From a virus, in the IMG/VR virus record IMGVR_UViG_3300045988_073070: 64,000 bases of DNA; one strand, given 5' to 3'. Of this stretch, positions 3,734 to 64,000 are shown piece by piece; positions within the stretch are counted from its first letter, which is position 1; each line of letters opens with the position of its first letter. The notes below the pieces were generated by a model. The model made no database searches, was not told where the DNA came from, and saw only the letters and a program-made list of their open reading frames with translations. Position numbers and translations under genes: made by a program.

Positions 3734-3737
3734 AATT

Positions 3738-12807: not shown

Positions 12808-12999
12808 ATGAACAACAAGAAGGAAGTTGTAAAGAATAATCATTTCATTCCTTCTCCGTTTCCAGCTGTTACCGCTTATGAGAATGAATTTGTAAAAGTG
12901 TGGAACAATAATACGGCTGAGGCAGTTGCAGAGGTTTTGAAATATATGGCCAAAGCTACTGCCTTCGCTATTAAAGAAACGAAGGAGACAAAGAAATGA
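12808..12999 (+). CDS. Hypothetical small protein
   Basis: ORF of 63 aa. Its stop overlaps the next start (ATGA). Confidence 0.4.
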   Translation: MNNKKEVVKNNHFIPSPFPAVTAYENEFVKVWNNNTAEAVAEVLKYMAKATAFAIKETKETKK

Positions 13000-13928: not shown

Positions 13929-13932
13929 TATT

Positions 13933-15563: not shown

Positions 15564-15568
15564 GGATT

Positions 15569-17008: not shown

Positions 17009-17068
17009 GCCCAGTTATTATCTAACCATATGTAACGATAAATCATAAATGTTTAATAATCGTAAAAT

Positions 17069-21813: not shown

Positions 21814-22224
21814 ATGGCAGATTTTGAGAAAGCATTCCAGCGTACCGAGAAGCACGAAGGAAAGAATGTATGGACGAACATTGACGGTGATTCGGGAAAG
21901 GAAACTTGGAGCGGCATAAGCCGTGCTGCCAATCCTAAATGGGCAGGTTGGGCTATCCTTGATAAAATACCGAATAAAAAGAACAACCAAGTTATAAGCA
22001 CTCCAGAGTTGGAGCGTTTGAAACGAGAGTTGTACAAAAGTAATTATTGGAATCCCGTTTGGGGCGACCGTATCAAGAATCAGAAAGTTGCTGAAGATAT
22101 GTATGATATGGGCGTTAATGCTGGCCCAGCAACTTCCATAAAGTTATCCGAGCGACAATTCAAAATGACCGAAACGGGAAAGATGAGTGAAGCTCTATTA
22201 AACAAATTAAATTCAGTGGTATGA
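21814..22224 (+). CDS. Endolysin, GH108-like muramidase
   Basis: N-terminus FEKAFQRTEKHEGKNVWTNIDGDSGKETWSGISRAANPKW fits the GH108 pattern (catalytic E in the EGG-like motif, D-x-G-G/x-x-T-x-x-GI). Confidence 0.6.
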   Translation: MADFEKAFQRTEKHEGKNVWTNIDGDSGKETWSGISRAANPKWAGWAILDKIPNKKNNQVISTPELERLKRELYKSNYWNPVWGDRIKNQKVAEDMYDMGVNAGPATSIKLSERQFKMTETGKMSEALLNKLNSVV

Positions 22225-49887: not shown

Positions 49888-50253
49888 ATGAAGAAAACAG
49901 TTTGGAGCATATTTCGGGATTTGGTCAACTCCAAAGAGGTTGGCACCGAAATTACAAGGCAAGAGATTCTTGACGAAATAGAACGACAACTCATTGAGTA
50001 TGGAACGTTCATTGAAACAAAAGGAGTAAAACGAGCAAGATTTTCATCAGTTACGTTGGATTGTGCTCGCAATATGGCTACGGGCAGATATTATCTTGAA
50101 AAGACCGAGCGAGTTGGTCACTATAAGATAATTTGTCATTTTCCGCCAGATTACACCGTGTCGCAGTTGAGACGAGATTACGACCGAGAAATGGCGATGA
50201 TGGCTGAAAGAAATAATCATGGTAGCAATTGTAAAGATAAATCGGATAAATAA
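49888..50253 (+). CDS. Hypothetical protein (first gene of the replication module)
   Basis: ORF of 121 aa. Confidence 0.5.
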   Translation: MKKTVWSIFRDLVNSKEVGTEITRQEILDEIERQLIEYGTFIETKGVKRARFSSVTLDCARNMATGRYYLEKTERVGHYKIICHFPPDYTVSQLRRDYDREMAMMAERNNHGSNCKDKSDK

Positions 50254-51709
50254 TTTGACTTATTCGTTCAAGCTATCTACCAAAGAAGGTATAAGGCATG
50301 TTGCGAAAGCATTAACGTTTCGCAATCCAGACCCATTTGCGTATAGTAGCAGAATAGAGAAGTTTGATAAAAAGAAGTTTACGTTCAAAATAGGCATGAT
50401 GCCAACGCTTGAACGTTATTTAACCAAGAAAGGCGTTGAGTACGAAGTAGAGGACTACGCATTTGATTTGCCCGTTGGGGTTGAAGTGGATGACCGAATG
50501 ACGGGCAAATACATTCACCAAAAGAGAGCCGTTGAAGCATTCTTCCGAAAGAGGTTTGGAATCATAGTTGTCCCAACGAGAGGCGGAAAGACTTTCATTG
50601 CTTCCGAGATTTGCCGAATATTCTTGAATACGGATGACGGCAAATTTTTATTCCTTACAGATAACACAACGTTGTTTAATCAAGCTGTTGGAGACTTACA
50701 AGAGTTCTTCCAGAGATACGGTGGTGTAGAGGTAGGAGAGATAAAAGCTGGCAAGATTGACACTGGCAAGCGCGTAACTGTTGGAATGATTCAAACCGTC
50801 CAAAGTACACTATCGAAGCGTTGTAAGGACAAAAAGAAGAAAGCGGAGCTGACGAAGTATTTGCGTGAGTTGAAGTTTCTTTGTGTCGATGAGATACATG
50901 ATAACTGCTCCGATTCCAAATTGTCGATATACAAGAAGTGTAAGCGGTTGGAATATCAACTTTGTCTTTCAGCAACTCCGTATCGCACGGGAGCTTTGGT
51001 GCAAAATTTGAAGCTCAAGGAATGGAGTGGTGATGTTGTTTATACAATAACCGAAGCAAAGTTGAGGAAACGAAAAGTGTTGTCGGATTACAAAGTGTTC
51101 ATGCTTTTGGTAAATCATAACAATCTTGAATACGATACGAAGGTTGATGATTATGACCAATACCGAAAGGACTTGATATTTCATTCAGCCTATCGGAACG
51201 GGGTATTGCGTATGGTGGTTAAGATTCTACGGAGATTGAACCTGAAAACTTTACTACTATTCCAATCGAAAGAGCATGGCTACACGATGGAACGGCTCAC
51301 GGGCATACCTTTTATCTGCGGTGATAATACGGGTGAGGAAAGAGAGGAAGCAAAAGAAGCCTTCTTGGAAGGAAAAGGCGGTATGTTGTCTGCTTCGGGG
51401 ATATTCAAGAAAGGCGTAACACTTCCAGCCGTGGAAGTAATGATTAACGTAGATGGCGGATTGGAAGATGCTAATACGATTCAGAAAAAAGGGCGTGTTC
51501 TTGGAGCTACCAAAGATAAACAACGGAGCTTGATAATAGACTTCTTTGACGAGTTTGACGCATACTTCTCAGACCATTCGGGGGCAAGGTTACAGACCTA
51601 TATTGACGCTATCGGAGAGAAGCGTGTGGGAATCCTTGATACCGAAATTGACGATTGCTACGAGACTTTGGAACGATGGATTAAAAGGTGGTTCAAATTA
51701 GATGAATAG
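50219..51709 (+). CDS. Superfamily 2 DEAD/DEAH-box helicase
   Basis: Motif I VVPTRGGKTFIA, motif II CVDEIHD, motif III SATPYR. The C-terminal helicase domain contains KKGRVLG. Confidence 0.75.
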   Translation: MVAIVKINRINNLTYSFKLSTKEGIRHVAKALTFRNPDPFAYSSRIEKFDKKKFTFKIGMMPTLERYLTKKGVEYEVEDYAFDLPVGVEVDDRMTGKYIHQKRAVEAFFRKRFGIIVVPTRGGKTFIASEICRIFLNTDDGKFLFLTDNTTLFNQAVGDLQEFFQRYGGVEVGEIKAGKIDTGKRVTVGMIQTVQSTLSKRCKDKKKKAELTKYLRELKFLCVDEIHDNCSDSKLSIYKKCKRLEYQLCLSATPYRTGALVQNLKLKEWSGDVVYTITEAKLRKRKVLSDYKVFMLLVNHNNLEYDTKVDDYDQYRKDLIFHSAYRNGVLRMVVKILRRLNLKTLLLFQSKEHGYTMERLTGIPFICGDNTGEEREEAKEAFLEGKGGMLSASGIFKKGVTLPAVEVMINVDGGLEDANTIQKKGRVLGATKDKQRSLIIDFFDEFDAYFSDHSGARLQTYIDAIGEKRVGILDTEIDDCYETLERWIKRWFKLDE

Positions 51710-52298
51710 GAAACAAAAACAATTGTATAGACAATCGGTTGATATGTTTATAGATATGTTGGAAACGATAACCAAACGGAAATGTAATTACAGGTGTAAT
51801 GATTCCGATGTTGGTTCGTTTGAAACGTTCTGTAACGAGTTCGACACGAATATTATCGGCATGTCCTTTATCAAGACGTATCTTGAATACCAATTCCAAA
51901 GTTGGTTCAATACGGGAACGGATAAGGACTATTCAAGAACAGTCAGATTCAGTTGGATGTTTGGAGCGAAAGCAATAAAACGCTGGCGAGTATTCAAACC
52001 CGAAGTGAACGTGAAGATTGTTCGAGGTCACATAAAAAAGTTGGGTATCTACAAACCGAAGGTGAGCCGAGAAACGAAGATACCAGAGTTAATTTTAAGG
52101 ATAAGACCTGCTGAAGAAAACTTCAAAAGGGAGTATCACAACACCCAGAGGGGATTCGCATGGTGTATAGCGAATACAACGTTGTATAACCATAAAAGTT
52201 CCCTTTGTGTTCGTTGTAGCTTCAAGAACGAATGTAAGGAAGTTCTGGAGAAACAATATCCAAAAGTATATGTAAAACGAGGTTATGGCAAGAAATAA
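51702..52298 (+). CDS. Hypothetical protein
   Basis: ORF of 198 aa between two helicase genes. Contains Cys pairs (CNYRC, CVRCSFKNEC). Confidence 0.5.
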   Translation: MNRKQKQLYRQSVDMFIDMLETITKRKCNYRCNDSDVGSFETFCNEFDTNIIGMSFIKTYLEYQFQSWFNTGTDKDYSRTVRFSWMFGAKAIKRWRVFKPEVNVKIVRGHIKKLGIYKPKVSRETKIPELILRIRPAEENFKREYHNTQRGFAWCIANTTLYNHKSSLCVRCSFKNECKEVLEKQYPKVYVKRGYGKK

Positions 52299-53664
52299 CG
52301 CATTAACAAGTAATTATATCAACGAGCTATTTGCGGCTGCGTTTCAACGTAGGGGTGTATTTGATACGATTCGTGAATATCTCAAATTCTCCTACTTACA
52401 AACCGAAGCCGAAAAGCAACTATGGCAGTGGGCGGTTAAACAATACGACCGAACAGGCAAAGTACCAACGATTGGTCAACTACAACAACAGTTCTCCGAG
52501 AATGAGAAAGTGTTGGATTTTATTGTAGATATAGCCGATGTTGAGTTTGACGATGAAGATAATTTTGAGGAAGGCTTGATGCATACTTTTGAGGACTTTA
52601 TCAAAAAGATGAAGTTTCTTGAGGTAAACGATAAAATTGTTGATATTTATAATAGGGGTGAGAAAGACAAAGCGTATGAGACTTTTGTGAAGTATGCTGA
52701 GGACTTTGGTAAATTCTCTATTATGAAGCCGAAGTTTGAGACGGTGTTTGGAGACTTCGGAGAACGTCAAGCAAAACGAAAGAGCGAGGATTACAATTTC
52801 AGGTTCAAGATTCCTACGGGAATAGATGAAATTGATTATAGGCTTGGCGGTGATTACGGTGGGCCAGAAACGGGTGAATGCGTTCTTTGGCTTGGAGATT
52901 CGGGAGCTGGTAAGAGTCAGTGTTTGGTTCATCTTGGTATAGCTGCCGCACGTCAAGGATTCCGAGTTGCGCACTTTCAGTTGGAAGGTACAAAGGAACA
53001 ATGCTTGAATCGTTACGATGCTGCTTGGACAGGTACGTTATATCAAGATGTGAAACTTGGTAACATTACCGATAAGAAAATGGAAGTTACCAAGCGTATC
53101 ATCAAGAAGCTCAAAAAGTCTGATGTTATTGTAAGCTCCGAAGAAAAGTGGGGTGGTAAGAGCCTTGTTGATGTTCGTAGGGAACTGAAAGAAATGGAGA
53201 AAATCTATGGCAAGATAGATGTAATTGTCATAGACTACTTGGAATTGTTAGAGGTTGGTGATGGTATAGTGTATATGCCAAAAGATGAGCGATTCCGTCA
53301 GGCGAAACTTGCGAAGGGTATGAAGGCTTTGGCGATGGAGTTTAATGCCGTAGTACATACCGCAACCCAAGCAAGTAATATTCCCGAAGAACAGAAGAAC
53401 GACCCAGAGTTTGTAATAACGAGAGCGCAGTTGAGTGAGGATAAGGGAAAGATACGACCGTTTGATATTTTCATAACGATTAATCAAACCCGTGATGAGA
53501 TGCGAGAGGAAATCATGCGACTTCATACAGATAAGCTCCGAGACTATAAAAACGGAGAGCCTGTTCACATTTGTAATAATTTTGCTTATTCACGTTTCTA
53601 CGATAGAATGAGAACATTGAATACAGATTGGGATGAAAGAGAGGAAGCGAACGAGGAAGATTGA
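52285..53664 (+). CDS. dnaB: DnaB-like replicative helicase
   Basis: RecA-like C-terminal domain with Walker A LGDSGAGKSQC and Walker B-like VIVIDYLELL. Helical N-terminal domain. Adjacent to the primase gene. Confidence 0.75.
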   Translation: MARNNALTSNYINELFAAAFQRRGVFDTIREYLKFSYLQTEAEKQLWQWAVKQYDRTGKVPTIGQLQQQFSENEKVLDFIVDIADVEFDDEDNFEEGLMHTFEDFIKKMKFLEVNDKIVDIYNRGEKDKAYETFVKYAEDFGKFSIMKPKFETVFGDFGERQAKRKSEDYNFRFKIPTGIDEIDYRLGGDYGGPETGECVLWLGDSGAGKSQCLVHLGIAAARQGFRVAHFQLEGTKEQCLNRYDAAWTGTLYQDVKLGNITDKKMEVTKRIIKKLKKSDVIVSSEEKWGGKSLVDVRRELKEMEKIYGKIDVIVIDYLELLEVGDGIVYMPKDERFRQAKLAKGMKALAMEFNAVVHTATQASNIPEEQKNDPEFVITRAQLSEDKGKIRPFDIFITINQTRDEMREEIMRLHTDKLRDYKNGEPVHICNNFAYSRFYDRMRTLNTDWDEREEANEED

Positions 53665-54610
53665 TGAAGCGGATTTGAAAGACATTCTTGTCAATCCGAC
53701 TTTGAACCGTAGAGGACAATACATTTGCGATTGTCCTTTTTGCGGAAAGGAAAAGCATTTTTATATCTCCAAAGATACCCAGATGTGGGATTGTAAGAAG
53801 TGCGGCGAATATGGAAATATTTACAAACTTCTAAAACGTCTCAATAAAACCTACCTTCTGGGTGGAGCTACGATTGAGGACACCGATATTCTTACCAGTA
53901 TCAAGGTATGGTTGGAAGAGCAAGCAGAATCTGACGATACAGTATTGGAAGAACTTCCTGTGAAGAAGTTACCTGTGGGGTGGAAGATAAGCGAAAAGAG
54001 CACACCGTATTTATTGGGTAGAGGCATTACACCCGAAGATTGCAAGCGGTATAATATCGGAGCTACTGATTTGTATAGAAAGTACAAGAATTATGTTATC
54101 ATTCCGATTTACGACAATGGTGAAATAAGAGGATTCTTGGGACGATACGGAGCAAAACACGTTCCCGAAGATAAGTTGCGTTACAACAACAGTACGAATA
54201 CTGAGTTTGGTCAATTGCTATTCGGATATGACGAGATTGTAAAGAATAAGACTTTGACCGTTATTTTGGTAGAAGGTGTCTTTGATAAGATAGCGGTTGA
54301 CAAAGTTCTTCGATTATGGGAAATTGACGAAATAAAGTGCGTTTGTACGTTCGGCAAGAAGATAAGCCCAGAGCAACAAAAGAAACTTATACAAAAGGGA
54401 ATTGAGAATGTTGTTTTGTTATATGACTTCGATGCTATCAAGGATATAAAAAAGTATGGATTGGAACTTGAAGAATCGTTCAATACAACTATTACTTATA
54501 CAATGAAAAAGGACATTGATGAGTGTACCAAAGATGAAGCATTGGAAGTTTTTAACAACGTAAAACGACCGAGAGAGTTTAATGAGGATGTTATTGGAAA
54601 ATTAAAGTAG
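53633..54610 (+). CDS. DnaG-like primase (zinc finger + TOPRIM)
   Basis: CHC2-type zinc finger CDCPFCGKEKHFYISKDTQMWDCKKCGEYG. TOPRIM motifs ILVEGVFDK and LLYDFDAIKD. Confidence 0.8.
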   Translation: MKERKRTRKIDEADLKDILVNPTLNRRGQYICDCPFCGKEKHFYISKDTQMWDCKKCGEYGNIYKLLKRLNKTYLLGGATIEDTDILTSIKVWLEEQAESDDTVLEELPVKKLPVGWKISEKSTPYLLGRGITPEDCKRYNIGATDLYRKYKNYVIIPIYDNGEIRGFLGRYGAKHVPEDKLRYNNSTNTEFGQLLFGYDEIVKNKTLTVILVEGVFDKIAVDKVLRLWEIDEIKCVCTFGKKISPEQQKKLIQKGIENVVLLYDFDAIKDIKKYGLELEESFNTTITYTMKKDIDECTKDEALEVFNNVKRPREFNEDVIGKLK

Positions 54611-54613
54611 GTT

Positions 54614-55048
54614 ATGGAACATACAAAAACAAGAAACCTTTCAGTTGCCGAATATTTTTTGCAGTTACAAAAAGAATATTTGACTGCTGAGTTTAGGCGA
54701 AAAATATATTTCAATCCCAAAGATAAGGCGTATTACCAGAAGGTGATGGGCTTCAAGAAGGAGAAGATTGAAAGTATAGCAAAAAGAAATCGTTTGAAGA
54801 GCATTTTTAATGACAACGTTACTTTAAGCGAGATACAAAGAGAATTGTTCACTTTGGACGGAAAGCCGAAGTTTGAGATGACGGATATTGACCGTGAAAA
54901 TTACTACGCAACGGGCAATGAGTTTTCCTATAAAGGAGAAATATGGACGCTTGACCAAGTGAACGATGATGGAAGTTTAACGCTTTATTCATTGAGCCGT
55001 GAGCAATATGAAAATGCAACCCAAGATGAGGTTTGCCGAATATTATAA
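54614..55048 (+). CDS. Hypothetical protein
   Basis: ORF of 144 aa, last gene before the inverted repeat and promoter P3. Confidence 0.5.
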   Translation: MEHTKTRNLSVAEYFLQLQKEYLTAEFRRKIYFNPKDKAYYQKVMGFKKEKIESIAKRNRLKSIFNDNVTLSEIQRELFTLDGKPKFEMTDIDRENYYATGNEFSYKGEIWTLDQVNDDGSLTLYSLSREQYENATQDEVCRIL

Positions 55049-55073
55049 AAGAACTTGCGAAAACCCAATTTAA

Positions 55074-55136
55074 GTTTGGTTTTACCTGAGAATTGCTTAA
55101 CAAAAGTTAAATTTTTGGGTAAAACCAAACTTTTTT
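55074..55136 (+). repeat. 12-bp perfect inverted repeat followed by T6 (terminator-like or operator-like)
   Basis: GTTTGGTTTTAC (55074-55085) and its exact reverse complement GTAAAACCAAAC (55119-55130) are separated by 33 nt and followed by TTTTTT (55131-55136). Confidence 0.7.
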
Positions 55137-55146
55137 CGTAAAAAAT

Positions 55147-55177
55147 TTTGTAGTTTGGAAAATAGTCTCTATCTTTG
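55147..55177 (+). promoter_or_regulatory. Bacteroidota-type promoter P3 (-33 TTTG, 19 nt, -7 TATCTTTG)
   Basis: TTTG 55147-55150, 19-nt spacer, TATCTTTG 55170-55177. AAGTTAAA box at 55104-55111. 27 nt upstream of ATG 55204. Confidence 0.7.
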
Positions 55178-55184
55178 TATCAGA

Positions 55185-55202
55185 ATCGTAAATCAAATTG
55201 TA
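55185..55202 (+). repeat. 18-nt leader motif ATCGTAAATCAAATTGTA (identical second copy at 62115-62132)
   Basis: Exact 18-mer ending 1 nt before ATG 55204. The second copy ends inside ATG 62132. Related ATCGTAAA and AATTGTAAA half-motifs precede other start codons. Confidence 0.8.
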
Positions 55203-55203
55203 A

Positions 55204-55854
55204 ATGACGATGGAGAAAAAACAAAAAATTTCAGAAACTTTGTACCATAGATACGAGTATCTTGCAAAGAAATATGCAAGCCGTATTTATTCATACGAAC
55301 AATTATCATACGAGTTCGATGATTTGGTGCAGGAGTTCCGAATAAAGATATTCACGTCAATAAAGAGCTACGGAAAGCGTTGGTTAAAATATCGGAAAGA
55401 AGGTTATGCGAAACCTGTGCCCTTGAAATATTATCTTGAAGCTGCTTGTGCTAATAAAATGAGAGACTTCATGAAATATATAACAAGGGAAAATTACAAA
55501 GTAAGGATTGACGAAATCAATTATGACTTTGGGGTGGAAATGGATTCCGAGATTATTCCAGAGCTTAACAAGTTCGTCATTAACGGAATAGATTTATTGG
55601 AAGGATTAACGGGAAAGGAGAGAGCAATATTCAGTTTGTATCTCCGTGGGCATAGCTCAAAAATTCTTACCAAAGTTTATTTTAACAACGCCAAAGAGAA
55701 GGCAAAACGAAAAGAAATTTTGGACAGTGGTGACGAGCCGTTTGGAGTAGCAGATATAATAGAAATGCAATGTAACTTCTTAATCAAAAAGTATGGTAGT
55801 GAATTGCAGCAACTCCGTAGGACTTTCGCAACTTACAACTTTGATGAAGAGTAA
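55204..55854 (+). CDS. Phage-encoded sigma-70 family (ECF-like) sigma factor
   Basis: Region-2-like FDDLVQEFRIKIFTSIKSY and region-4 HTH-like LTGKERAIFSLYLRGHSSKILTKVY. Size of 216 aa fits the family. Confidence 0.5.
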   Translation: MTMEKKQKISETLYHRYEYLAKKYASRIYSYEQLSYEFDDLVQEFRIKIFTSIKSYGKRWLKYRKEGYAKPVPLKYYLEAACANKMRDFMKYITRENYKVRIDEINYDFGVEMDSEIIPELNKFVINGIDLLEGLTGKERAIFSLYLRGHSSKILTKVYFNNAKEKAKRKEILDSGDEPFGVADIIEMQCNFLIKKYGSELQQLRRTFATYNFDEE

Positions 55855-55899
55855 CAAATAATTAGACAATTTTTAATAAACAATTAAATCGTAAAAAAG

Positions 55900-57243
55900 A
55901 TGGCAACTAAATTGACCGCCAATGTGGCAAAGAGAGTTAAAGCATTAGGAATTAATGCAACAACTGACGAGGCAGCACGCCCAAAACTTCTGGAAATTCT
56001 GGAAGAGAATGGAATTGAGCAGATGGACGATGAGGACATCACAACTCTGGTAGAAATCGCAGAATCTTTCGTGGACGCAGATGCGGACGGGGATGATGAA
56101 GGAGACGAAGAAGCGGAAAACGATGCTTTGGCTGAAGAAGTTGAAGAGGAAGAAAAACCGAAAAAGGGAGCAAAGAAAGCTACCAAGAAAGCCGAGCCTG
56201 AACCCGAAGAAGAAGATGAGGACGAGGAAGAAGAAAGCGATGATGAGGAAGAATCTGACGAGGATTCCGAAGAAGGCGATGAGCTTGACGACATGGACAG
56301 AGGTGAGTTGAAAGACTACATCAAAGAAAACGAATTGGAAATCACCGTGAAGAAATCTTGGAGTGATGACGACATTCGTGAAAAAATCCGTGAAGCTATG
56401 GGCGATGAAGAGGATGAGGAAGAAGATGAAGCACCTGCTCCGAAAAAGAACGCCAAAACTGCGGCTGCTCCGAAAAAAGAGGAAAAGAAAGCCGACAAAA
56501 AAGAAGCTCCGAAGGCTTCAGCCAAAAAGGAAGACAAACCGAAGGCTGACAAAAAAGCTACTGCGAAACGTGGTAACAAACTTGACCCGAAGAACAACGA
56601 AGAAGACAGAAAACATTTTGACTTCTTGAAGAAGTTGTTCCCTGAAAAAGATTACATCTATGCTTGGGTTGCAAGTGCTGGCGTAACAATCAAGTACAAA
56701 GGCAAAAACAGCAACCGTTCTCTTATCAGCCTTGAAAATTGTACGCTCAAGGGAGAAGGAAAGAATGCGGTTATGACTTGCAACCTGTACCTGCTTATCT
56801 TCAACGGCAAATACGAAGCGTTGGAAAAAGCCGAAGTGGAATATGAAAAATGTTGGAGTGGTGCTCCGATGTTGAAAGCTATCGAAGTAAGCGAAGCCGT
56901 TGAGGTCATTGAATCTCTGAAAGACGAAATGGACAAGATGGTAGGCGGTATCGACAAGAAGTTGGGAGACAACCGCAAGAAAATGGAAGAAGGTTTGAAG
57001 AAGGACAAGAAAGCTGCCGGCAAAGCATCATCCAAGAAGGCTTCTGACGATGAAGAGGAAGAAGATGAGGACGAGGAAGAACAGCCGAAAGCAAAAGCGA
57101 AACCTGCCGCAAAGAAGGCTTCCAAAAAGGTAGAAGTGGAAGAGGACGAAGAAGATGAGGATGACGAGGAAGAAGCACCCGCACCGAAAAAGAAAGCGAC
57201 CTCAAAGACCGCTACCAAGAAAACGGTAAACAAAAAGAAATAA
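55900..57243 (+). CDS. Hyper-charged protein with D/E tracts, histone-H1-like K/A/P tracts and a central globular domain
   Basis: 447 aa. Acidic runs (EEEDEDEEEESDDEEESDEDSEEGDE), lysine-rich runs (AAPKKEEKKADKKEAPKASAKKEDKPKADKKATAKRG, and the C-terminal KKKATSKTATKKTVNKKK), and a non-repetitive core at roughly aa 225-340. Confidence 0.6.
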   Translation: MATKLTANVAKRVKALGINATTDEAARPKLLEILEENGIEQMDDEDITTLVEIAESFVDADADGDDEGDEEAENDALAEEVEEEEKPKKGAKKATKKAEPEPEEEDEDEEEESDDEEESDEDSEEGDELDDMDRGELKDYIKENELEITVKKSWSDDDIREKIREAMGDEEDEEEDEAPAPKKNAKTAAAPKKEEKKADKKEAPKASAKKEDKPKADKKATAKRGNKLDPKNNEEDRKHFDFLKKLFPEKDYIYAWVASAGVTIKYKGKNSNRSLISLENCTLKGEGKNAVMTCNLYLLIFNGKYEALEKAEVEYEKCWSGAPMLKAIEVSEAVEVIESLKDEMDKMVGGIDKKLGDNRKKMEEGLKKDKKAAGKASSKKASDDEEEEDEDEEEQPKAKAKPAAKKASKKVEVEEDEEDEDDEEEAPAPKKKATSKTATKKTVNKKK

Positions 57244-57272
57244 GCCCAACCAGACTTATTGTAATTGGAAAG

Positions 57273-57306
57273 GGAGTAGCTTGTAAAAGTTGCTCCTTTT
57301 CTTTTC
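57273..57306 (+). terminator. Intrinsic terminator-like hairpin
   Basis: GGAGTAGCTT (57273-57282) pairs with AAGTTGCTCC (57287-57296, two G-U pairs). GTAA loop, then TTTTCTTTTC. Confidence 0.6.
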
Positions 57307-57385
57307 TCCCAGCGTTATCAACGTTATAAGATACGAACGAAAGAATAAAGAAATTAAGTCATTTTAACAAATAAATTAAGTTGAT

Positions 57386-58585
57386 ATGGAAATTCCGAAA
57401 AACAATTGCTTTTTTCCCGATTATGGAGTGGCGAAAGTAGAAACGTTTGGGATGTTGTACCCTGTAATTAATGATTACATCTTAACCAACAAACAAAAAG
57501 AAGAAAGCCGAGCAGGAGATGTAAAGGAACTGCTGGACGTCAAAACAATCATAACCAATCCTTATCAACGTTGCGTTGGCGGTTATGGTAGAGACATCAA
57601 TGTATTCTTTCTTCTTGCCGAAGCTATGTGGATAGCTGTTGGAAGAAAAGATGTAGAGTTTTTGGAAATATTCAATTCACGTATGAAGGACTTCAGTGAT
57701 GACGGAAAGACTTTCCACGCACCATACGGATTCCGATTGCGTCATTGGGGTATTCGTACCGAAGACAAATATGAAAGCGGAGTTAATGCCGCTCAAGGAT
57801 ATGACCAAGTAGCAGATGCAATACGGCTCTTGTCCGAGAATCATAACACACGTCAGGTAGTTATGGCAATATGGAATCCGAGTTTTGACTTGGGAGCGAA
57901 AAGCAAGGACATTCCTTGTAACGACCTTGTGATGTTGAAGATTCGTGATGGTAAGATGGTCACCACAATTCAGAATCGGAGTAATGACCTTCATTGGGGA
58001 TTGCCGACAAATATATTCCAATTCTCTTTCTTGACCGAGATTATGGCGACTTGTCTTGGTATCGAATTGGGAACACAAACACACAACTCTCAAAGTCTTC
58101 ATATTTATGATTGGAACGGTACGGCAAAGAAGATGCAAGAAATCTTCAAGGCTTCGGGAACGGGGCATTCACTTTATGAAGCTACGCCAGCCGAAGCGAA
58201 ACCGATGGACTTTGCTTTCAATCATGAGGTTGCAATTAACCGTCTCCGTGAAGTAGATTCACATTTGAATATCGTTATCGAAAATCTTCTCAGGATAAAG
58301 AATGGAGAAGATGAGATACAAGACGAAATTAAGCAGCTACAAGACTTTTCAACCTTCTTCTTTAATACTTACCAGCTCCTGAAAATATACGTGCTCTACA
58401 AGCATAAAAACAAGCTGGCTAAAACGGATATTGAAAAGGATGCTATTCGCAAAACAGCGATAGCCGAAATTGAACTGTTGGAAGCCGAAGGAGCAAAAGA
58501 TTGGGACATGGCAATACTTGCAAAGAACTTCTTTCACGCAAGGTTAAGTAAACCAATGAAGCATAAATATCTTGGGAAGCTATGA
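57386..58585 (+). CDS. Thymidylate synthase superfamily enzyme, probably a deoxypyrimidine-monophosphate hydroxymethylase
   Basis: TS-fold motifs FHAPYGFRLRHWG, NTRQVVMAIWNP, DIPCND (catalytic Cys) and NRSNDLHWGLPTNIFQF, then SLHIY. The sequence is divergent and carries a helical C-terminal extension of about 100 aa. Confidence 0.7.
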   Translation: MEIPKNNCFFPDYGVAKVETFGMLYPVINDYILTNKQKEESRAGDVKELLDVKTIITNPYQRCVGGYGRDINVFFLLAEAMWIAVGRKDVEFLEIFNSRMKDFSDDGKTFHAPYGFRLRHWGIRTEDKYESGVNAAQGYDQVADAIRLLSENHNTRQVVMAIWNPSFDLGAKSKDIPCNDLVMLKIRDGKMVTTIQNRSNDLHWGLPTNIFQFSFLTEIMATCLGIELGTQTHNSQSLHIYDWNGTAKKMQEIFKASGTGHSLYEATPAEAKPMDFAFNHEVAINRLREVDSHLNIVIENLLRIKNGEDEIQDEIKQLQDFSTFFFNTYQLLKIYVLYKHKNKLAKTDIEKDAIRKTAIAEIELLEAEGAKDWDMAILAKNFFHARLSKPMKHKYLGKL

Positions 58586-61500
58586 CCGAAAGTTTACAAA
58601 AATGGATTGAAGAAAATCATTTGGTAATATCAGAATCGTCTTTGAATGGTTCTGATATTATCTCTATTGAAGGCATGGGAACATTCTTATACCTTCACCC
58701 GTTTGACGGGAAAATAATTGACGAAGATTTTGGCTTTATATTATCCGATGAAGAATTTGATATGTTGGATGAGGCGAAAGTGAACTTCATTCTATTTGAG
58801 TTTGGTCAAAAATTCTATTATTCGGGAATAAAGAAAACCAAAAACCGCTACAACGAATTAATCTTCAAACCTCAATTCAATGACTTCAAATATCTTGGAG
58901 TAACAAGCGAGGAATTTATAATGGACTTTTCTCACTTGGGCGTTCATTCGGAGTACGAAATATTGAATGGCTCTGGCGGTTGTGAGGTATGGGCAAAGAA
59001 AGCTAAATTCACTGGCGTTAAGGCTCTTGGAATATGCGACCGAAATACTTTGGCTGGAGCTTTATCATTCCAGAGCTTTTGCGATAAGTATGGCGTGAAA
59101 TCGGTTATCGGAGAAACCATAACCGTTGCCAAGGACTATGATGCTGAAAAAGAGAATCAAGAAACCTTTGAACTGAAAGCCTACATATTGAACTACGAGG
59201 GGTGGAAAAACCTTTTGTTGATTAATAAGGCTATGAACGTAGATTACAACGGATTCATTCCAGACAATGAATTGTATAAGCGAGGAAAGGGATTGGCGTT
59301 GGTCATACCCAAAGAATCGGAGTTCAATTACATTAAGGATGAAAAGAAGGAAGTTATCAAGCTCATAGCAAAGTATAAGAAGCATTTTACAAGAGTTTAT
59401 TATCAGATAGACACCGTTGAGTACGTTTCGGATTCTTTATTCAAGAAGCACTTGGAAAACATTGATACATATATCTGCGAATATAAGAAATATGTCAAAC
59501 CAATTCTCATAAATGATTCCTACTATCTTGACCGTGAAATGCACGAGTTGAAAGGAGTTCTGAACAAGGTATTAGGAAAAGCAGCACCCGAAGCATTGAA
59601 CCAATATTTCAAGAGTTGTCGAGAAACGTTTGATGAATATGCCGATTGGCTTGACGAGGTTGAACCGTTATTCCAGACAATCATAGAAGGTATTGAAAAT
59701 GCCAACCGATTAGCAGACCGAGTTGACTTCAAGATTCCTTCGGGAGAAAGAAAGCTGCCTCACTTCGAGGTTGATGACCCAGTAGCACTGTTCTTCGATA
59801 TGTTGGAGAAAGGAGTTCAAGAACGTCTTTCACATCTTCCAAAGAAAGAGTTTGAAGTGTATATGAAACGCTTGGAAATCGAATGTAATGTAATTGTACC
59901 GAATGACTTGGTTGATTACTTTATGATTCTTTGGGATATAATCAATTGGTGTAAAAAGAATGGTATAATGGTAGGCACTGGACGTGGTTCGGTTTGCGGT
60001 AGTCTTGTCGCTTATTGTTTACACATTACAGATGTTGACCCATTGAAATACGGATTGATGTTTGAACGTTTCTTGAACGAAACACGTGTATCGGGAGAGC
60101 GAGCAAAGTCAGCCGATAGTATGCCCGATATTGATGTGGACTTTCCAACGGAACACCGAGATGCGGTGAAGAACTATATCAAGGATAAATATGGGTATGA
60201 TTACACTTGTTCTATCGGAACGTACACCCGAATGAAACTCAAGACTTGCTTGAAGGACTTCGCCAAAGTAAAGGGTTTGCCGTTCGATGTAATGAATAAA
60301 CTCACGAAGGATATTGACGACCAAATTGAATACACTTGGGGAGACTTAATTGAATACGCAAGTAAATCGAAAGCCTTGTTCAAGTTCGTTCAGGAGAATC
60401 CTGATATTGTTCATTTGACGAAATACGGCATGTTACAATGCAAGGCTGCTTCGGTTCACCCTTCTGCTGCGATTATAGTTCCAAAGCATACGGTTGATGG
60501 AACAAACCGAGAAATTGATATTTGGGAATGGATGCCCGTTAAGAAAATTGATGGCGTTCTTGTATCGGAGTGGGAAGGTAAATACATAGACAAGTCTGGA
60601 TTCTTGAAAGAAGATATTTTGGGACTTAATCAGCTTGATAAGTTCAAGAGTATGGAGATATTGATTCAGAAGAACTACGGGAAAAAGATTGATTGGAATC
60701 AGATTCCTTTGGACGATGAAGAAACATTCAAATATTTCAAGAGAGGTTGGAATGAGGATGTATTCCAATTTGGTACACAAGGCTTGATGAATTATAGCCG
60801 ACAAGTGAAACCTGATACTTTGGCGCAACTAATAGCCATGACGGCTCTATTCCGACCTGGCCCAATGGAGCTTAATGCACACTCAGATTTTGCCGATATT
60901 AAGAACGGAAAGAAGAAGCCAACATACGACTTCGGAATGGAAGAGATAACTGGGGAAACCTTTGGATTATACGTCTATCAAGAGCAAATCATGAAGGGTG
61001 TAGTTGTGGGCGGTTTAACCGAAGTTGAATCAGACATTCTCCGTACTACTATCAAAAAGAAAGACGTCAAGACACTATCATCATATGGCGAAAAATTCAA
61101 AGAAGGATATTCAAAATTATTGGAGAAAAACGGCATAGAGAATCCGAAGGAATATGCGGAGAAGGTATGGGCAAAATTGCTTGCTTTCTCTGGATATGGT
61201 TTCAATAAATCTCATGCTGCGGCTTATTCCATAATGTCCTATTGGAGCCAATATATGAAAGTTAATTATCCGTTGGAGTTTTGGACAACTTCTTTGCAAT
61301 ATGCCAAAGAGGGTGAAGTGCCATACCGATTAGCGGAGTTAAAGAAAACAGGCGTTGAAATCGAAATACGACCGCCAGATGTTAATTTCTCCGAGCAAAC
61401 ATTCACTTGTGACCCGAAAGAACAACGCATCTTCTTCAGTTTAACAAAGATTAAGGATGTTGGTGAAAAGGTAGTTCCATATATCATGGCTGAACGTGAG

Positions 61501-62121
61501 AAGGGTGGAAGATTCTTTTCATTGGAAGAGTTCGTTGAAAGAGTTCCGTCAAAGGTAAACAAGAAAATCATAGAGAGGTTAATTGTTGCGGGAGCTTTTG
61601 ATATTGTTGAAAATGTAAAAAATCCGAGAGATAGAAAGAAGTTGTTGCAATGGTATCTTGATTATAAGAAAGCCGAAATGCCGAAAGATTATCAAGTGCC
61701 CGAAAGTGAAACAAATTCATTTTGGGTATTCGAGCAAAAACGTTTGACGGGATTTGGTGAAGTAGATTATGAGACAATGATTCGGGATGCTATTCCAAAT
61801 AAAAGAGTGGCAAAGTTATACGTTAATGACTTTGAGTTCTCCAATACGAAGGAAGGCAAAGAAGCCACAATTGCAGGCAAGTTAATATACTACCAAGAAC
61901 GTAGCATCAAGAACGGAACAATGGTCAGCGTTAATATAGACTGTAACAATACTATCATACCCGTAACACTTTGGCCAGATGCGGTTGAGAGACTTCCTGA
62001 AAATATATCGGAGTATAAAAACCGAGTTGTGGCAATATCTGGACGGGTCAAGAAAGATAAGTTCAAAAACCAAAAAGTTCTCTATTCAGATGATAGAACA
62101 AAAATTTATATAATATCGTAA
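58582..62121 (+). CDS. dnaE: DNA polymerase III alpha subunit (DnaE-type)
   Basis: PHP motifs HLGVHSEYEILNG and GICDRNTLAG. Palm and fingers motifs GRGSVCGSLVAYCLHITDVDP, MPDIDVDF and FNKSHAAAYS. C-terminal OB-like region. A leader of about 110 aa precedes the PHP domain. Confidence 0.9.
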   Translation: MTESLQKWIEENHLVISESSLNGSDIISIEGMGTFLYLHPFDGKIIDEDFGFILSDEEFDMLDEAKVNFILFEFGQKFYYSGIKKTKNRYNELIFKPQFNDFKYLGVTSEEFIMDFSHLGVHSEYEILNGSGGCEVWAKKAKFTGVKALGICDRNTLAGALSFQSFCDKYGVKSVIGETITVAKDYDAEKENQETFELKAYILNYEGWKNLLLINKAMNVDYNGFIPDNELYKRGKGLALVIPKESEFNYIKDEKKEVIKLIAKYKKHFTRVYYQIDTVEYVSDSLFKKHLENIDTYICEYKKYVKPILINDSYYLDREMHELKGVLNKVLGKAAPEALNQYFKSCRETFDEYADWLDEVEPLFQTIIEGIENANRLADRVDFKIPSGERKLPHFEVDDPVALFFDMLEKGVQERLSHLPKKEFEVYMKRLEIECNVIVPNDLVDYFMILWDIINWCKKNGIMVGTGRGSVCGSLVAYCLHITDVDPLKYGLMFERFLNETRVSGERAKSADSMPDIDVDFPTEHRDAVKNYIKDKYGYDYTCSIGTYTRMKLKTCLKDFAKVKGLPFDVMNKLTKDIDDQIEYTWGDLIEYASKSKALFKFVQENPDIVHLTKYGMLQCKAASVHPSAAIIVPKHTVDGTNREIDIWEWMPVKKIDGVLVSEWEGKYIDKSGFLKEDILGLNQLDKFKSMEILIQKNYGKKIDWNQIPLDDEETFKYFKRGWNEDVFQFGTQGLMNYSRQVKPDTLAQLIAMTALFRPGPMELNAHSDFADIKNGKKKPTYDFGMEEITGETFGLYVYQEQIMKGVVVGGLTEVESDILRTTIKKKDVKTLSSYGEKFKEGYSKLLEKNGIENPKEYAEKVWAKLLAFSGYGFNKSHAAAYSIMSYWSQYMKVNYPLEFWTTSLQYAKEGEVPYRLAELKKTGVEIEIRPPDVNFSEQTFTCDPKEQRIFFSLTKIKDVGEKVVPYIMAEREKGGRFFSLEEFVERVPSKVNKKIIERLIVAGAFDIVENVKNPRDRKKLLQWYLDYKKAEMPKDYQVPESETNSFWVFEQKRLTGFGEVDYETMIRDAIPNKRVAKLYVNDFEFSNTKEGKEATIAGKLIYYQERSIKNGTMVSVNIDCNNTIIPVTLWPDAVERLPENISEYKNRVVAISGRVKKDKFKNQKVLYSDDRTKIYIIS

Positions 62122-62131
62122 ATCAAATTGT

Positions 62132-62773
62132 ATGTTAAGCAAAATTATTTTAGGCAAGTACCTGCAACGACTTGACAACATCAAGCAATGGCAGGAAATG
62201 GACGTTTTCAAGGAAGAAAGCGTGAGTCAACATTCGTATAAAGATTCAATTTTTGCGAGAGTATTATTGGAAGATATATTCGGCAACAATCAAAGTCCGA
62301 AGGTAGTTCAGTTCAAATTAGATGTAGTTACAAGAACACTTCTTCACGACTGGGATGAAGCCTTGATTCTACGAGACATGTCTCACGAGACCAAATACAA
62401 TCCTTACAACGGAGAGGAAATCAGAAGGTGCTTAAATGCCCTTTCCAATCATATTGCGTTGAATGAGTTCCGAGAGGTTGACGAGGATTCTTGCGACACG
62501 GATTCGTCACGTATGATGTGGGGAATGATTTGCGCTTGTCCAGAGCCAGTAAAGAGTTTTGCTAAACTATGTGATTGGATTGCGTTATTCTTTTATATGC
62601 AAAGGGAAAAGCATCTGGGCAATAAGGACTTGGAGAAATCTTGGAACATTGCGGCAAGTAAATTTCCCGAAGCGATTGACAATGTAATAAATGTGTTGAA
62701 GGGATATTTCCCGAACGAGAAATTGAACTTTGATGAATTGTATAACTTAAAAACAATTTTTGAAGATGAGTAA
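62132..62773 (+). CDS. HD-domain phosphohydrolase (YfbR-like 5'-deoxynucleotidase)
   Basis: VSQHSY ... LLHDWDEALI gives the H...HD...E metal-ligand pattern of the YfbR-type HD family. Confidence 0.55.
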   Translation: MLSKIILGKYLQRLDNIKQWQEMDVFKEESVSQHSYKDSIFARVLLEDIFGNNQSPKVVQFKLDVVTRTLLHDWDEALILRDMSHETKYNPYNGEEIRRCLNALSNHIALNEFREVDEDSCDTDSSRMMWGMICACPEPVKSFAKLCDWIALFFYMQREKHLGNKDLEKSWNIAASKFPEAIDNVINVLKGYFPNEKLNFDELYNLKTIFEDE

Positions 62774-63068
62774 ACAGGAACAGGGTAAAGAGATGACCAA
62801 AGAAAGTATCAATGGCATCTTTGATGGCATGACTGATACGTTGTTGAAGAAGAATGCCGACTACAAAGGAGCGAGTTTTGACTTGGGTTTGAACGGGAAT
62901 ATGGTTCATATTTGGGACAAAGTTAGAAGATACAGAAGTATGGTGGAGAATCAGAATCACGGAATCACGCCAAACTTTGAAGGTATCGAAGACACTTTGA
63001 AAGATATTATTGGCTATGCCGTTATTGGCTTGCATATCTTGAAAAAGGAAAACGAAGAAAAGGAGTAA
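62760..63068 (+). CDS. DUF1599 / nucleotide-modification-associated domain 1 (Nmad1)-like protein
   Basis: 102 aa. LLKKNADYKGASFDLGLNGNMVHIWDKVRRYRSM fits my recollection of the K-N-x-D-Y-G ... D-K-x-x-R pattern of DUF1599. The start overlaps the HD gene by 14 nt. Confidence 0.45.
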   Translation: MKMSKQEQGKEMTKESINGIFDGMTDTLLKKNADYKGASFDLGLNGNMVHIWDKVRRYRSMVENQNHGITPNFEGIEDTLKDIIGYAVIGLHILKKENEEKE

Positions 63069-63075
63069 CATCAAT

Positions 63076-63597
63076 ATGGAAAAGAAAGTAATTACCATTG
63101 GCGGTCAAACCTACGTGTTAAGGTTTGATGACTTTGACGAAGATGTTGATATTGATTCTTTGTTAAAGATAGACTATTCCAATTTAATCGGAGAGCTTAT
63201 CACCTTCCCAGTCATTGTAAACCGTTTTGGTCAATTGCTTGCGGAAGCCGAAAGTCAAGTTGCTCTTGCTAAATTAAATTTGGAAGTAACGGAAGCCAAA
63301 CTCAAAGAATCAATGCGAGTTAAATTGGCAGACCGTAACGGGAAAGCTCCGAGCGTTGACGCTGTAAATTCTGCTGTTACGTTGGAGAAGGCATATCAGG
63401 CAATGCGTAGGAATTTGATTGAGAGACAAAAGACAAGAGACTATATGAATTCAATCTTTTGGTCAGCCAAAGATAAGAGCGAAAAGTTGGATAAATTGTC
63501 TTTGACTATTCAGCCGAATGATTTGCCCGATTCGGTTATCGAAGGTAGAGTGAACAACGTTCTTATAAAGAGAACAAAGAAATTAATTGGAGATTAA
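63076..63597 (+). CDS. Hypothetical coiled-coil protein
   Basis: ORF of 173 aa. Confidence 0.5.
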   Translation: MEKKVITIGGQTYVLRFDDFDEDVDIDSLLKIDYSNLIGELITFPVIVNRFGQLLAEAESQVALAKLNLEVTEAKLKESMRVKLADRNGKAPSVDAVNSAVTLEKAYQAMRRNLIERQKTRDYMNSIFWSAKDKSEKLDKLSLTIQPNDLPDSVIEGRVNNVLIKRTKKLIGD

Positions 63598-63622
63598 AAT
63601 AATTTTACAAATTCAAAAGATT

Positions 63623-64000
63623 ATGGCTGTAAAGAAAACAGAAAAGAAAGGTGGCGCAGATTTGAGAGCGCAACTCAGACCGACTTCAATCAAGAAGTTG
63701 AAGAAGGTTGTCGATGAAGACAATGAAATGGTAGGTGCTCAAAGTAATGAGTATCTCAACCTTGAGGATGGTAAAACGCTCAAGATTCGCATTTTCCCTG
63801 CACACCCTGGTCAAGAAAACTTCTATGTAGCAAAGAAATGTTACTGGTTGACCGTAGAAGGAAATGACGGAGAGCCGAGACGCACGACCGTTCTTGATTC
63901 CGTAGTTCATGGTGGAACAGAGAAAGACTTGTGTGCCGAGTTCATCAAGTACGCCAAAAAGAAATGGGCAAAGGATTCCGAGAAAATGGAGTGCTTCAGC
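63623..64000 (+). CDS. Partial CDS (5' part), possibly a T4 gp32-like ssDNA-binding protein
   Basis: Hand translation from ATG 63623 is open to the end of the window: MAVKKTEKKGGADLRAQL...YLNLEDGKTLKIRIFPAHPGQENFYVAKKCYWL. The pattern resembles the gp32 N-terminus (KLKLD..G.AVIRFLP). It is absent from the ORF track because there is no stop in the window. Confidence 0.4.
   Translation, partial: MAVKKTEKKGGADLRAQLRPTSIKKLKKVVDEDNEMVGAQSNEYLNLEDGKTLKIRIFPAHPGQENFYVAKKCYWLTVEGNDGEPRRTTVLDSVVHGGTEKDLCAEFIKYAKKKWAKDSEKMECFS

Follow-up and report, generated by a model that had tools for sequence, protein, structure and literature searches.

Phage enzymes that hydroxymethylate deoxyuridine monophosphate (dUMP) have been known since gp29 of phage SPO1, which is annotated as a dUMP hydroxymethylase and was characterised by Wilhelm and Rueger in 1992 (as cited in PMC8989533). 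When a pathway was reconstructed, the homologue from phage SH-Ab 15599 provided its dUMP hydroxymethylase (PMC13458397). The demonstrated chemistry of thymine hypermodification involves a P-loop kinase (5-HMUDK) that acts on 5-hydroxymethyldeoxyuridine (5-hmdU) in DNA and an alpha-glutamyl/putrescinyl thymine pyrophosphorylase (aGPT-Pplase) of clade 2, now named ADDT, an amino-acid:DNA transferase (PMC8989533). In enzymes with the thymidylate synthase (TS) fold, Asn at the selector position directs the enzyme to dUMP and Asp to dCMP; positions 147 and 177 of E. coli ThyA were the two most discriminating ones in an independent metagenome association study (PMC8670742).

The gene considered here lies at 57386-58585 (+) of a 64,000-nucleotide stretch of viral DNA (IMG/VR record IMGVR_UViG_3300045988_073070), which was analysed over its whole length and is called the window below. 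The open reading frame (ORF) has an ATG start and encodes 399 aa. On the ORF, its Pfam and PHROG matches, a tree and the cut-offs of curated ThyA models, the product is assigned to the SPO1-type dUMP hydroxymethylase family of TS-fold enzymes; five independent computational criteria agree on this placement. Judged from its sequence, the protein is probably a dUMP hydroxymethylase that provides the adjacent DnaE polymerase with 5-hydroxymethyl-dUMP (5-hmdUMP) for making DNA, and we give this reading a probability of roughly 0.8. This uncultured gut-phage lineage is not known to use such an enzyme, and the finding would extend a known family. A first-pass annotation, made from the sequence without database searches, had preferred a hydroxymethylase directed at dUMP to a housekeeping ThyA. 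The proposal is well supported by the closest cultured-phage matches, which are SPO1-type dUMP hydroxymethylases at about 40% identity, the signature residues, the 100/100 support in the tree, the failed ThyA cut-offs and the structural match to MilA.

The Pfam family Thymidylat_synt matched residues 76-253 of the protein at 3.9e-24 (profile positions 55-212 of 266), and PHROG 5131 matched residues 24-362 at 1e-72. Relatives detected by sequence in the PDB were TS chains and MilA, at 1e-18 to 1e-19. Among cultured phages, the best matches were the dUMP hydroxymethylases of SPO1, SP8, SP82G, CampHawk and SP10, with 40-46% identity and E values of 1e-40 to 1e-48. These were followed by the M6-like and ViI-like enzymes, while td and thyA genes ranked far lower. 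On these comparisons, homology to the TS superfamily is unambiguous and far beyond chance.

Alignment with E. coli ThyA (reference sequence from MG1655) placed the catalytic Cys at residue 178 (C146 in E. coli; codon 57917-57919, +), inside the motif IPCND, with the next residue, N179, at the position of TS His147. The residue that selects between uracil and cytosine is Asn209 (N177 in E. coli; codon 58010-58012, +), inside GLPTNIFQF. Both residues had been read correctly at the outset, as had the presence of the motifs PCND, NRSND, TRQ and GLPTNIFQF. In the protein, NTRQ occupies residues 154-157, IPCND 176-180, NRSND 197-201 and GLPTNIFQF 205-213. In addition to C146 and N177, the following ThyA residues are kept: R21 (R42 in the phage protein), E58 (E79), Y94 (Y114), R126 (R156), R166 (R198), S167 (S199), D169 (D201), H207 (H239) and Y209 (Y241). 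The changes relative to ThyA are R127 to Q157, H147 to N179, Q165 to N197, H51 to Asn and L143 to D175; W80 is absent, its position falling in a different motif.

These changes were followed across six dUMP hydroxymethylases of 346-405 aa (SPO1 gp29, SP10, SH-Ab 15599, ViI/Vi01, an M6/YuA-like Pseudomonas phage and Rhodoferax phage P26218) and four canonical TS anchors (E. coli ThyA, Serratia PS2 td, Bacillus BM15 TS and Enterococcus EFDG1 TS). The T4 td gene was left out of the anchors because of its intron. At position 51 of the E. coli numbering (Ec51), canonical TS has His or another residue, whereas the dUMP hydroxymethylases and the window's protein have Asn (Ser in ViI). At Ec80, the Trp of the canonical IWDE motif is missing from the hydroxymethylases and from the protein, which have an FSDDG motif instead. 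Ec143 is Leu in canonical TS and Asp in the other group, and Ec147 is His (Val in EFDG1) in canonical TS and Asn in the other group. The hydroxymethylase state at these four positions was found in the protein and in 126-127 of 127 metagenomic family representatives, and, with FSDDG, is absent from all four canonical anchors. PCN, (N/Q)RS(N/G)D..WG, TRQ or TRR, FSDDG and a long C-terminal region are common to the compared hydroxymethylases, with small variations in ViI and SH-Ab 15599. Judged by this comparison, the odd motifs of the protein are the shared signature of SPO1-gp29-type dUMP hydroxymethylases, not idiosyncratic drift. Thus the motifs first described as strongly diverged are indeed present but are not peculiar to this protein; they define a known family, so that the enzyme is less unusual than first supposed.

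The selector Asn is shared by the window's protein with the SPO1, SP10, ViI, SH-Ab 15599, M6-like and Rhodoferax enzymes alike. T4 gp42, the dCMP hydroxymethylase, has Asp at the selector in the alignment, as had been stated beforehand. Because gp42 nevertheless carries Asn51, Asp143 and a residue other than His at 147, the changes at Ec51, Ec143 and Ec147 appear tied to hydroxymethylase chemistry and not to uracil binding. The same alignment bears on the possibility that the enzyme acts on dCMP, as gp42 does, or on a ribonucleotide, as does MilA with CMP. The catalytic Cys and the Asn at the His147 position are each found in 127/127 family representatives, while the selector is Asn in 123/127 and Asp in 4/127, so that dCMP-specific enzymes do arise inside the family, and MilA is the best structural match. 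However, the window's protein itself has Asn209, as do nearly all representatives, gp42 is only 18% identical to it, and no dCTPase, glucosyltransferase or carbamoyltransferase adjoins its gene. A cytosine nucleotide as the substrate is therefore extremely unlikely.

A neighbour-joining (NJ) tree was built from 312 well-occupied columns of 14 anchor sequences and 36 metagenomic relatives. The window's protein sits in a large clade of proteins of about 400 aa, whose sister group comprises the enzymes of SPO1, SP10, the M6-like phage and Rhodoferax phage P26218; the two fall together within the hydroxymethylase assemblage. A clade holding the protein and all six dUMP hydroxymethylases, without canonical TS, was recovered in 100/100 bootstraps; its position firmly within bona fide ThyA, which the first-pass annotation had named as the refuting outcome, was not found. 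The grouping with the SPO1, SP10, M6-like and Rhodoferax enzymes was recovered in 83/100 bootstraps and leaves outside the ViI-like enzymes, those of Maribacter phage Molly_1 and mycobacteriophage Papyrus, and T4 gp42. Against seven NCBIfam ThyA equivalog models the protein scored 22-78 bits at cut-offs of 108-427 and failed them all (for example, 77.9 against 174.55, 70.3 against 327 and 56.2 against 108.35).

These results also bear on the view that the protein is a divergent but genuine TS, which would convert dUMP into dTMP and dihydrofolate and supply dTTP for replication. The name 'thymidylate synthase' given to it by public pipelines agrees with this view, as do the fold and the retention of the catalytic Cys, E58, Y94, N177 and all dUMP-phosphate-binding arginines but one. 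However, the ThyA cut-offs were missed by a wide margin, and W80, L143, H147 and the canonical C-terminal segment, which are present in the four TS anchors (save for the Val of EFDG1 at Ec147), are missing. The protein grouped with TS in 0/100 bootstraps, and its nearest relatives are demonstrated or assigned hydroxymethylases. Furthermore, a TS that releases dihydrofolate is often accompanied by dihydrofolate reductase (DHFR), and no DHFR was found in any of the genome scans. A genuine TS is thus very improbable.

An AlphaFold2 model built on 26 family members has a mean pLDDT of 85.9 and a pTM of 0.89. Its last strand spans residues 227-241, and no strand of at least 3 residues follows. Helices occupy residues 245-257, 263-266, 283-305, 312-321, 323-344, 348-370 and 374-384; those within 283-384 are five long confident helices, and the block-mean pLDDT is mostly 92-97 across residues 271-380. 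The C-terminal helical region (residues 283-399; 58232-58582, +) was delimited from the model, from family conservation and from alignment of the tails. The protein is about 110-135 aa longer than the compared canonical TS proteins (264-289 aa). An extension of about 100 aa had been noted from the start; the long helical tail is there, but in the model the canonical C-terminal strands and terminal lid of TS are replaced and not extended, so that the last part of the fold is remodelled rather than simply appended to, and the tail is family-wide. It aligns with the tails of SPO1 gp29 (383 aa), SP10 (382 aa), the M6-like enzyme (405 aa) and Rhodoferax P26218 (349 aa), with a DW motif common to all five, and Y329, L332, Y335, D374, L378, N381 and F383 are invariant through the family. 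Canonical TS and T4 gp42 lack this tail. In the structure search, the seven top PDB matches were all chains of the CMP hydroxymethylase MilA, with target TM scores of 0.75-0.82 over 325-364 aligned columns reaching into the C-terminal helices, compared with only 235-302 aligned columns for TS chains. The best match among viral models was the TS-like protein of Maribacter phage Colly_1 (359 aa).

By analogy with TS and T4 dCMP hydroxymethylase, Cys178 would attack C6 of dUMP, and Asn209 would read the O4/N3-H face of the uracil. The one-carbon unit of 5,10-methylene-tetrahydrofolate would be transferred to C5, giving an exocyclic methylene intermediate. Water would then add to the methylene to yield 5-hydroxymethyl-dUMP and tetrahydrofolate, instead of the hydride transfer that yields dTMP and dihydrofolate. 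The changes that would fit such a switch are the loss of Trp80, Leu143 to Asp, His147 to Asn, His51 to Asn and the helical domain in place of the C-terminal lid of TS. Judging from the model, the remodelled lid and the loss of Trp80 may favour tetrahydrofolate release and water attack over hydride transfer.

A related possibility keeps the covalent chemistry but has the methylene captured by a nucleophile other than water, or uses another one-carbon donor, so that the product would not be 5-hmdUMP. It draws on the helical domain that stands in for the folate lid, on the separation of the protein's clade from every characterised enzyme in the NJ tree and on the missing downstream kinase and transferase that usually accompany such enzymes. 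However, there is no precedent for it within the family, and the protein shares its active-site residues with SPO1 gp29 and the SP10 enzyme, whose product is 5-hmdUMP. A different product is accordingly given little credence, and hydroxymethylation of dUMP is retained as the reading.

The neighbourhood of the TS-like gene is that of a replication module, with helicase, DnaB and primase genes upstream. A terminator-like hairpin revealed by RNA folding (57267-57302, +) lies between the upstream gene and the TS-like gene. It has 16 bp and -22.3 kcal/mol (z = -5.3; 0/200 shuffles equally stable), and a U-rich stretch stands directly 3' of it. A simple terminator scan missed it; it is likely to be a terminator or a regulatory element, and the TS-like gene together with dnaE probably starts a new transcription unit. 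The upstream gene itself (55900-57243, +) encodes a protein of 447 aa that has no family match and contains very long tracts of low complexity, acidic (D/E) or rich in lysine and alanine; its length varies from 429 to 447 aa among near-identical contigs.

Downstream, the TGA of the TS-like gene overlaps the ATG of dnaE (ATGA). This gene (58582-62121, +) encodes a DnaE-type DNA polymerase III alpha subunit of 1179 aa with the Pfam domains PHP, DNA_pol3_alpha, finger and HHH_6. The order of TS-like gene and dnaE is kept in relatives at only 51% and 42% identity, and the two genes would be co-transcribed and probably translationally coupled. In two related contigs (L033 and L034), an ORF of 189 aa divides dnaE into two genes. 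The next gene (62132-62773, +) encodes a YfbR-like HD-domain 5'-deoxynucleotidase of 213 aa (Pfam YfbR-like, 1.5e-11). It matched positions 9-194 of the 197 in the NCBIfam 5'-deoxynucleotidase model, with a score below the cut-off. This gene is kept in relatives of the phage; in the related contig L004 it is split into pieces of 105 aa and 131 aa, and may be dispensable or frameshifted there. It is followed by a 102 aa protein with DUF1599, 'Nucleotide modification associated domain 1' (62760-63068, +; Pfam PF07659 3.6e-07, 30.8 bits against a cut-off of 25; PHROG 1485 2.3e-17), and by a 173 aa protein (PHROG 20212), so that the three genes span 62132-63597 (+). The HD and DUF1599 proteins have no informative sequence relatives in the PDB. 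Past the window lie a 447 aa SSB-like protein (L001 16239-17582, a weak PHROG match to single-stranded DNA-binding protein), RecA and Mre11/Rad50-like proteins, and a trimeric-type dUTPase gene lies about 1.2 kb ahead of the window start.

These genes suggest how the product might be used. The dUTPase would supply dUMP. The 5-hmdUMP would be phosphorylated, presumably by host kinases since no phage dNMP kinase was found, and 5-hmdU would be built into phage DNA instead of T. The YfbR-like 5'-deoxynucleotidase and the DUF1599 protein would remove dTMP and dTTP. Phages with hydroxymethyluracil (hmU) deplete dTTP and dTMP through a dTTPase and a dTMPase (PMC8989533). The genes of Rhodoferax phage P26218 run ADDT, P-loop kinase, TS-like gene and YfbR-like HD gene, and because of this order the pairing of an HD protein with a hydroxymethylase is seen to recur in a clear hypermodification cluster.

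Several points weigh against a dUMP hydroxymethylase. The assignment is made by homology, and over the shared core the protein is only about 31-33% identical to characterised enzymes. The tree was made by simple NJ, and it includes few anchors from canonical TS. The argument from W80, L143 and H147 is a correlation over 14 anchors and the representatives, and the residues that switch a TS to hydroxymethylation lack experimental definition in dUMP hydroxymethylases. The roles suggested for the HD protein as a dTMP-clearing enzyme, and for the DUF1599 protein as possibly helping to deplete dTMP and dTTP, are guesses. Furthermore, dCMP deaminase, dNMP kinase and a dedicated dTTPase, which are typical helpers in hmU phages, were undetected in the genome scans.

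Hypermodification was addressed on a genome of about 97 kb tiled from near-identical contigs (the window, L001, L017, L025 and L015), the tiles closing a circle at about 96.5 kb by BLASTN. The first-pass annotation had the hydroxymethylase feeding a hypermodification pathway. One part of this is supported, in that a stand-alone clade 1 aGPT-Pplase gene (PF18723, now HMUDK_hel) is present at 4836-5993 (+; 385 aa; Pfam 2.7e-48); the other is not, in that neither 5-HMUDK nor aGPT-Pplase2/ADDT was found in the tiled genome. The chances that the hydroxymethylase feeds such a pathway are about even, and the proposal rests on one associated gene, about 51 kb from the TS-like gene. The aGPT-Pplase and DUF1599 predictions are said to go back to Iyer et al. 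2013.

The PF18723 protein has no kinase domain and no Walker A motif. In SP10 gp186 it aligns to residues 293-597, the C-terminal half, which is not the kinase. This half of gp186 is listed as aG/PT-PPlase1 and the N-terminal half is a kinase (Lee et al. 2018, PMC5889632); gp186 lacking its C terminus keeps kinase activity (PMC8989533). The protein also matches Orf49, encoded by the gene adjoining the SH-Ab 15599 hydroxymethylase gene, and its homologue in a Glutamicibacter phage bears the annotation 'alpha-glutamyl/putrescinyl thymine pyrophosphorylase clade 1'. Homologues occur in 366 records of cultured phages, which by name are mostly Vibrio phages or ViI-like phages (Salmonella, Klebsiella, Escherichia, Dickeya and Serratia). 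The matches listed also include Vibrio phages about 157 kb in size, the SP10-like Bacillus phage Goe26 and a Lysinibacillus phage. In SP10, SH-Ab 15599 and LysYB1, the PF18723 homologue lies at most about 1.1 kb upstream of the hydroxymethylase gene. The cultured lineages that carry PF18723 are mostly known or predicted thymine hypermodifiers. The stand-alone protein points to further processing of 5-hmdU once it is in the DNA.

The kinase and the transferase were sought in the tiled genome by Pfam on the larger ORFs, by phmmer with known 5-HMUDK and ADDT queries and by a Walker A motif search. A P-loop 5-hmdU DNA kinase of the type of M6 gp54, ViI gp67 and the N-terminal half of SP10 gp186 (gp186N) gave no match to Pfam PF18748 in the scanned ORFs, and phmmer with SP10 gp186N or the Rhodoferax kinase gave none in the tiled genome. 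Walker A motifs occurred only in helicases, DnaB, RecA, the large terminase subunit TerL and a few ORFs without assignment, one of them encoding a 667 aa protein. No Pfam match to PF18724 (aGPT-Pplase2/ADDT) was present in the scanned ORFs, and phmmer with the Rhodoferax and SH-Ab 15599 ADDT gave nothing below E = 0.4. Tailoring enzymes dependent on pyridoxal phosphate (PLP) or flavin adenine dinucleotide (FAD) were likewise not found in the tiled genome.

It is possible that the pathway ends as in SPO1, with 5-hmdU itself as the final virion base and no hypermodification, and that the PF18723 protein binds DNA or turns some of the 5-hmdU to T; SP10-type phages turn much of their 5-hmdU back to T. 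That no PF18748 kinase, PF18724 transferase or PLP or FAD tailoring enzyme was found across the tiled genome is consistent with this end point, and the only radical S-adenosylmethionine (SAM) gene lies in the virion block and is unrelated to those of the SP10 or M6-like type. The PF18723 protein of ViI, gp160, was part of the original five-lysate mix (PMC5889632) but does not figure in the ViI pathway as reconstituted, whose enzymes are gp67/gp243, gp247 and gp226 (PMC8989533). The model of the window's PF18723 protein (pLDDT 83.8) gave no significant Foldseek match, and the protein has no solved sequence relative; the top non-significant entries, the 5-PmdU glycinyltransferase PaMx11 gp46 and then helix-hairpin-helix (HhH) glycosylases (E = 1.6, TM 0.23-0.30), were not used as evidence. 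However, PF18723 occurs mostly in the cultured lineages named above, known or predicted to hypermodify thymine, and is reported absent from SPO1 (Lee et al. 2018, PMC5889632). Within the gut lineage the PF18723 protein is 70-98% identical, a tighter conservation than that of the hydroxymethylase, and Pfam and phmmer could have missed a kinase or transferase of divergent sequence. An end point at unmodified 5-hmdU is therefore regarded as somewhat doubtful.

Some further genes of the window touch the same question. A radical SAM and SPASM protein (13933-14889, +), whose best PDB relative is BtrN, is encoded by the only radical SAM gene, within the block of virion genes between the portal gene (6947-8719) and a lysis-type GH108 gene (21814-22224). 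Its surroundings (12996-19072, +) contain unassigned proteins of 310 aa and 228 aa, a GT1-like 479 aa protein (15569-17008; a weak match, below the Pfam cut-off) and the 667 aa protein (17069-19072), which has a Walker-A-like GGAGIGKS. The arrangement is kept in related contigs. No informative relative by sequence was found in the PDB for the proteins at 3696-4394 and 17069-19072. The radical SAM protein was considered as a counterpart of SP10 gp185 or of the M6-like radical SAM protein and rejected, there being no meaningful similarity beyond the Cys motif. The block could be a second modification module or could serve virion glycan chemistry.

It is conceivable, though unlikely, that this widespread lineage replaces thymine by means of the dUMP hydroxymethylase and that its 5-hmdU is then processed along a path different from the established one. 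Such a path would rely on PF18723, would involve neither 5-HMUDK nor a clade 2 transferase, and might also draw on the radical SAM/SPASM and glycosyltransferase-like genes at 13.9-17 kb. If so, this would be a new thymine hypermodification, or the first function assigned to a clade 1 aGPT-Pplase, for example the long-sought conversion of 5-hmdU to T.

As for the phage itself, a protein identical to that of the TS-like gene is indexed in 56 data blocks of ENA, JGI and Logan assemblies, on contigs of up to 96.6-98.5 kb. More than 600 homologues were found at E <= 1e-5. The best 120 are 57-99% identical, almost all covering 94-100% of the protein, and many are on contigs 87-103 kb long; once a library had been clustered at 50% identity, 485 family representatives fell below 1e-30. 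A megablast of positions 50000-64000 against the phage collection found no near-identical cultured phage, and all records of this phage come from metagenomes. DnaE and TerL are closest, at 31-38% identity, to those of Chryseobacterium, Cellulophaga, Tenacibaculum and Bacteroides thetaiotaomicron phages, and matches to baseplate J and sheath-initiator proteins point to a contractile tail. The source would thus be a human-gut myophage infecting Bacteroidota, with a genome of about 97 kb in a lineage of about 95-125 kb.

Several other features were seen in the lineage. After the baseplate genes, a 1259 aa protein (45751-49530, +; 1259-1330 aa across contigs) carries a SASA domain, a sialate O-acetylesterase-type carbohydrate esterase, at residues 838-1066, and probably serves as a tail fibre or depolymerase that targets an acetylated glycan of the host. 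The part of the genome outside the window also has genes for an ECF-type sigma factor, for a pyrimidine-dimer glycosylase resembling T4 endonuclease V (Pyr_excise) and, adjoining the dUTPase, for a ferritin-like protein (L025 11677-12201 and 17244-17696; L015 8959-9561). In one contig the large terminase contains a Hint/LAGLIDADG intein (L014 5294-8083; 929 aa against 577 aa), and GIY-YIG/NUMOD3 homing endonuclease genes occur at differing sites (L003 19926-20579, L005 5631-6311 and L017 11910-12584). Three TS-like homologues of 685-751 aa (P0128, P0164 and P0233) match the protein in two stretches, which suggests inteins or insertions within some hydroxymethylase homologues. The 359 aa TS-like homologue of Maribacter phage Molly_1 (L036 4228-8987) has Thr at Ec147, and its gene stands directly after those of a beta-glucosyltransferase, an NAD-dependent epimerase/dehydratase and a UDP-glucose dehydrogenase-family protein, which suggests a glycosylated hydroxymethylpyrimidine in that phage.

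If the assignment as a dUMP hydroxymethylase is correct, a prevalent lineage of human-gut phages would carry non-canonical thymine in its DNA. Such a base would affect susceptibility to restriction and CRISPR and thus the evasion of host defences, and the chemistries of sequencing libraries could bias the recovery of these phages in virome work. The automated label hides this modification potential. The lineage is also a good place to seek the function of clade 1 aGPT-Pplases, having a hydroxymethylase and a clade 1 protein and no recognisable 5-HMUDK or clade 2 transferase.

Among the known systems, the window's protein is most similar to SPO1 gp29 (DUHM_BPSP1) and its counterparts in SP8, SP82G and SP10, with which it shares the TS fold, PCN, NRSNDLHWG, (D/N)TRQ, FSDDG, APYG-RLR and the selector Asn. 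In length (383 aa against 399 aa), in the homologous helical C-terminal region and in the location of its gene beside replication genes, gp29 is also similar. The core identity is only about 33%, however, and the protein belongs to a large metagenomic clade of its own. SPO1 differs further in its Bacillus host, in contrast to the presumed Bacteroidota-type gut host here, and in its partner polymerase, which is of the Pol A type (gp31) and not of the DnaE type. Its pathway ends at 5-hmdU, and it has no aGPT-Pplase genes (PMC5889632).

The hypermodifying phages (ViI/Vi01 060c, SH-Ab 15599, M6-like/YuA-like and Rhodoferax P26218) have hydroxymethylases with the same signature residues, at 28-32% identity. 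As in the window, the hydroxymethylase co-occurs with a PF18723 protein in SH-Ab 15599 and the ViI-like phages and is paired with a YfbR-like HD phosphohydrolase in Rhodoferax P26218. Unlike the phage studied here, in which neither was found, these phages encode a P-loop 5-HMUDK and aGPT-Pplase2/ADDT, usually adjoining the hydroxymethylase. ThyA and Td share with the protein the fold, the catalytic Cys, E58, Y94, R21, R126, R166, S167, D169, N177, H207 and Y209, at about 20% identity, but the protein lacks W80 and has helices in place of the C-terminal strands and lid. T4 gp42 shares the hydroxymethylase chemistry, Asn at Ec51, Asp at Ec143 and a residue other than His at Ec147; it differs in its selector Asp (D179), its retained W80, its length of 246 aa without a helical tail and its low identity. 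MilA (PDB 5JNH, 5B6D and 5JP9), the CMP 5-hydroxymethylase of mildiomycin biosynthesis, is a TS-superfamily hydroxymethylase and the closest in structure. However, it is only about 21% identical, and its substrate is a cytosine ribonucleotide in an antibiotic pathway of Streptomyces, whereas the protein described here keeps the selector Asn and belongs to a phage replication module.

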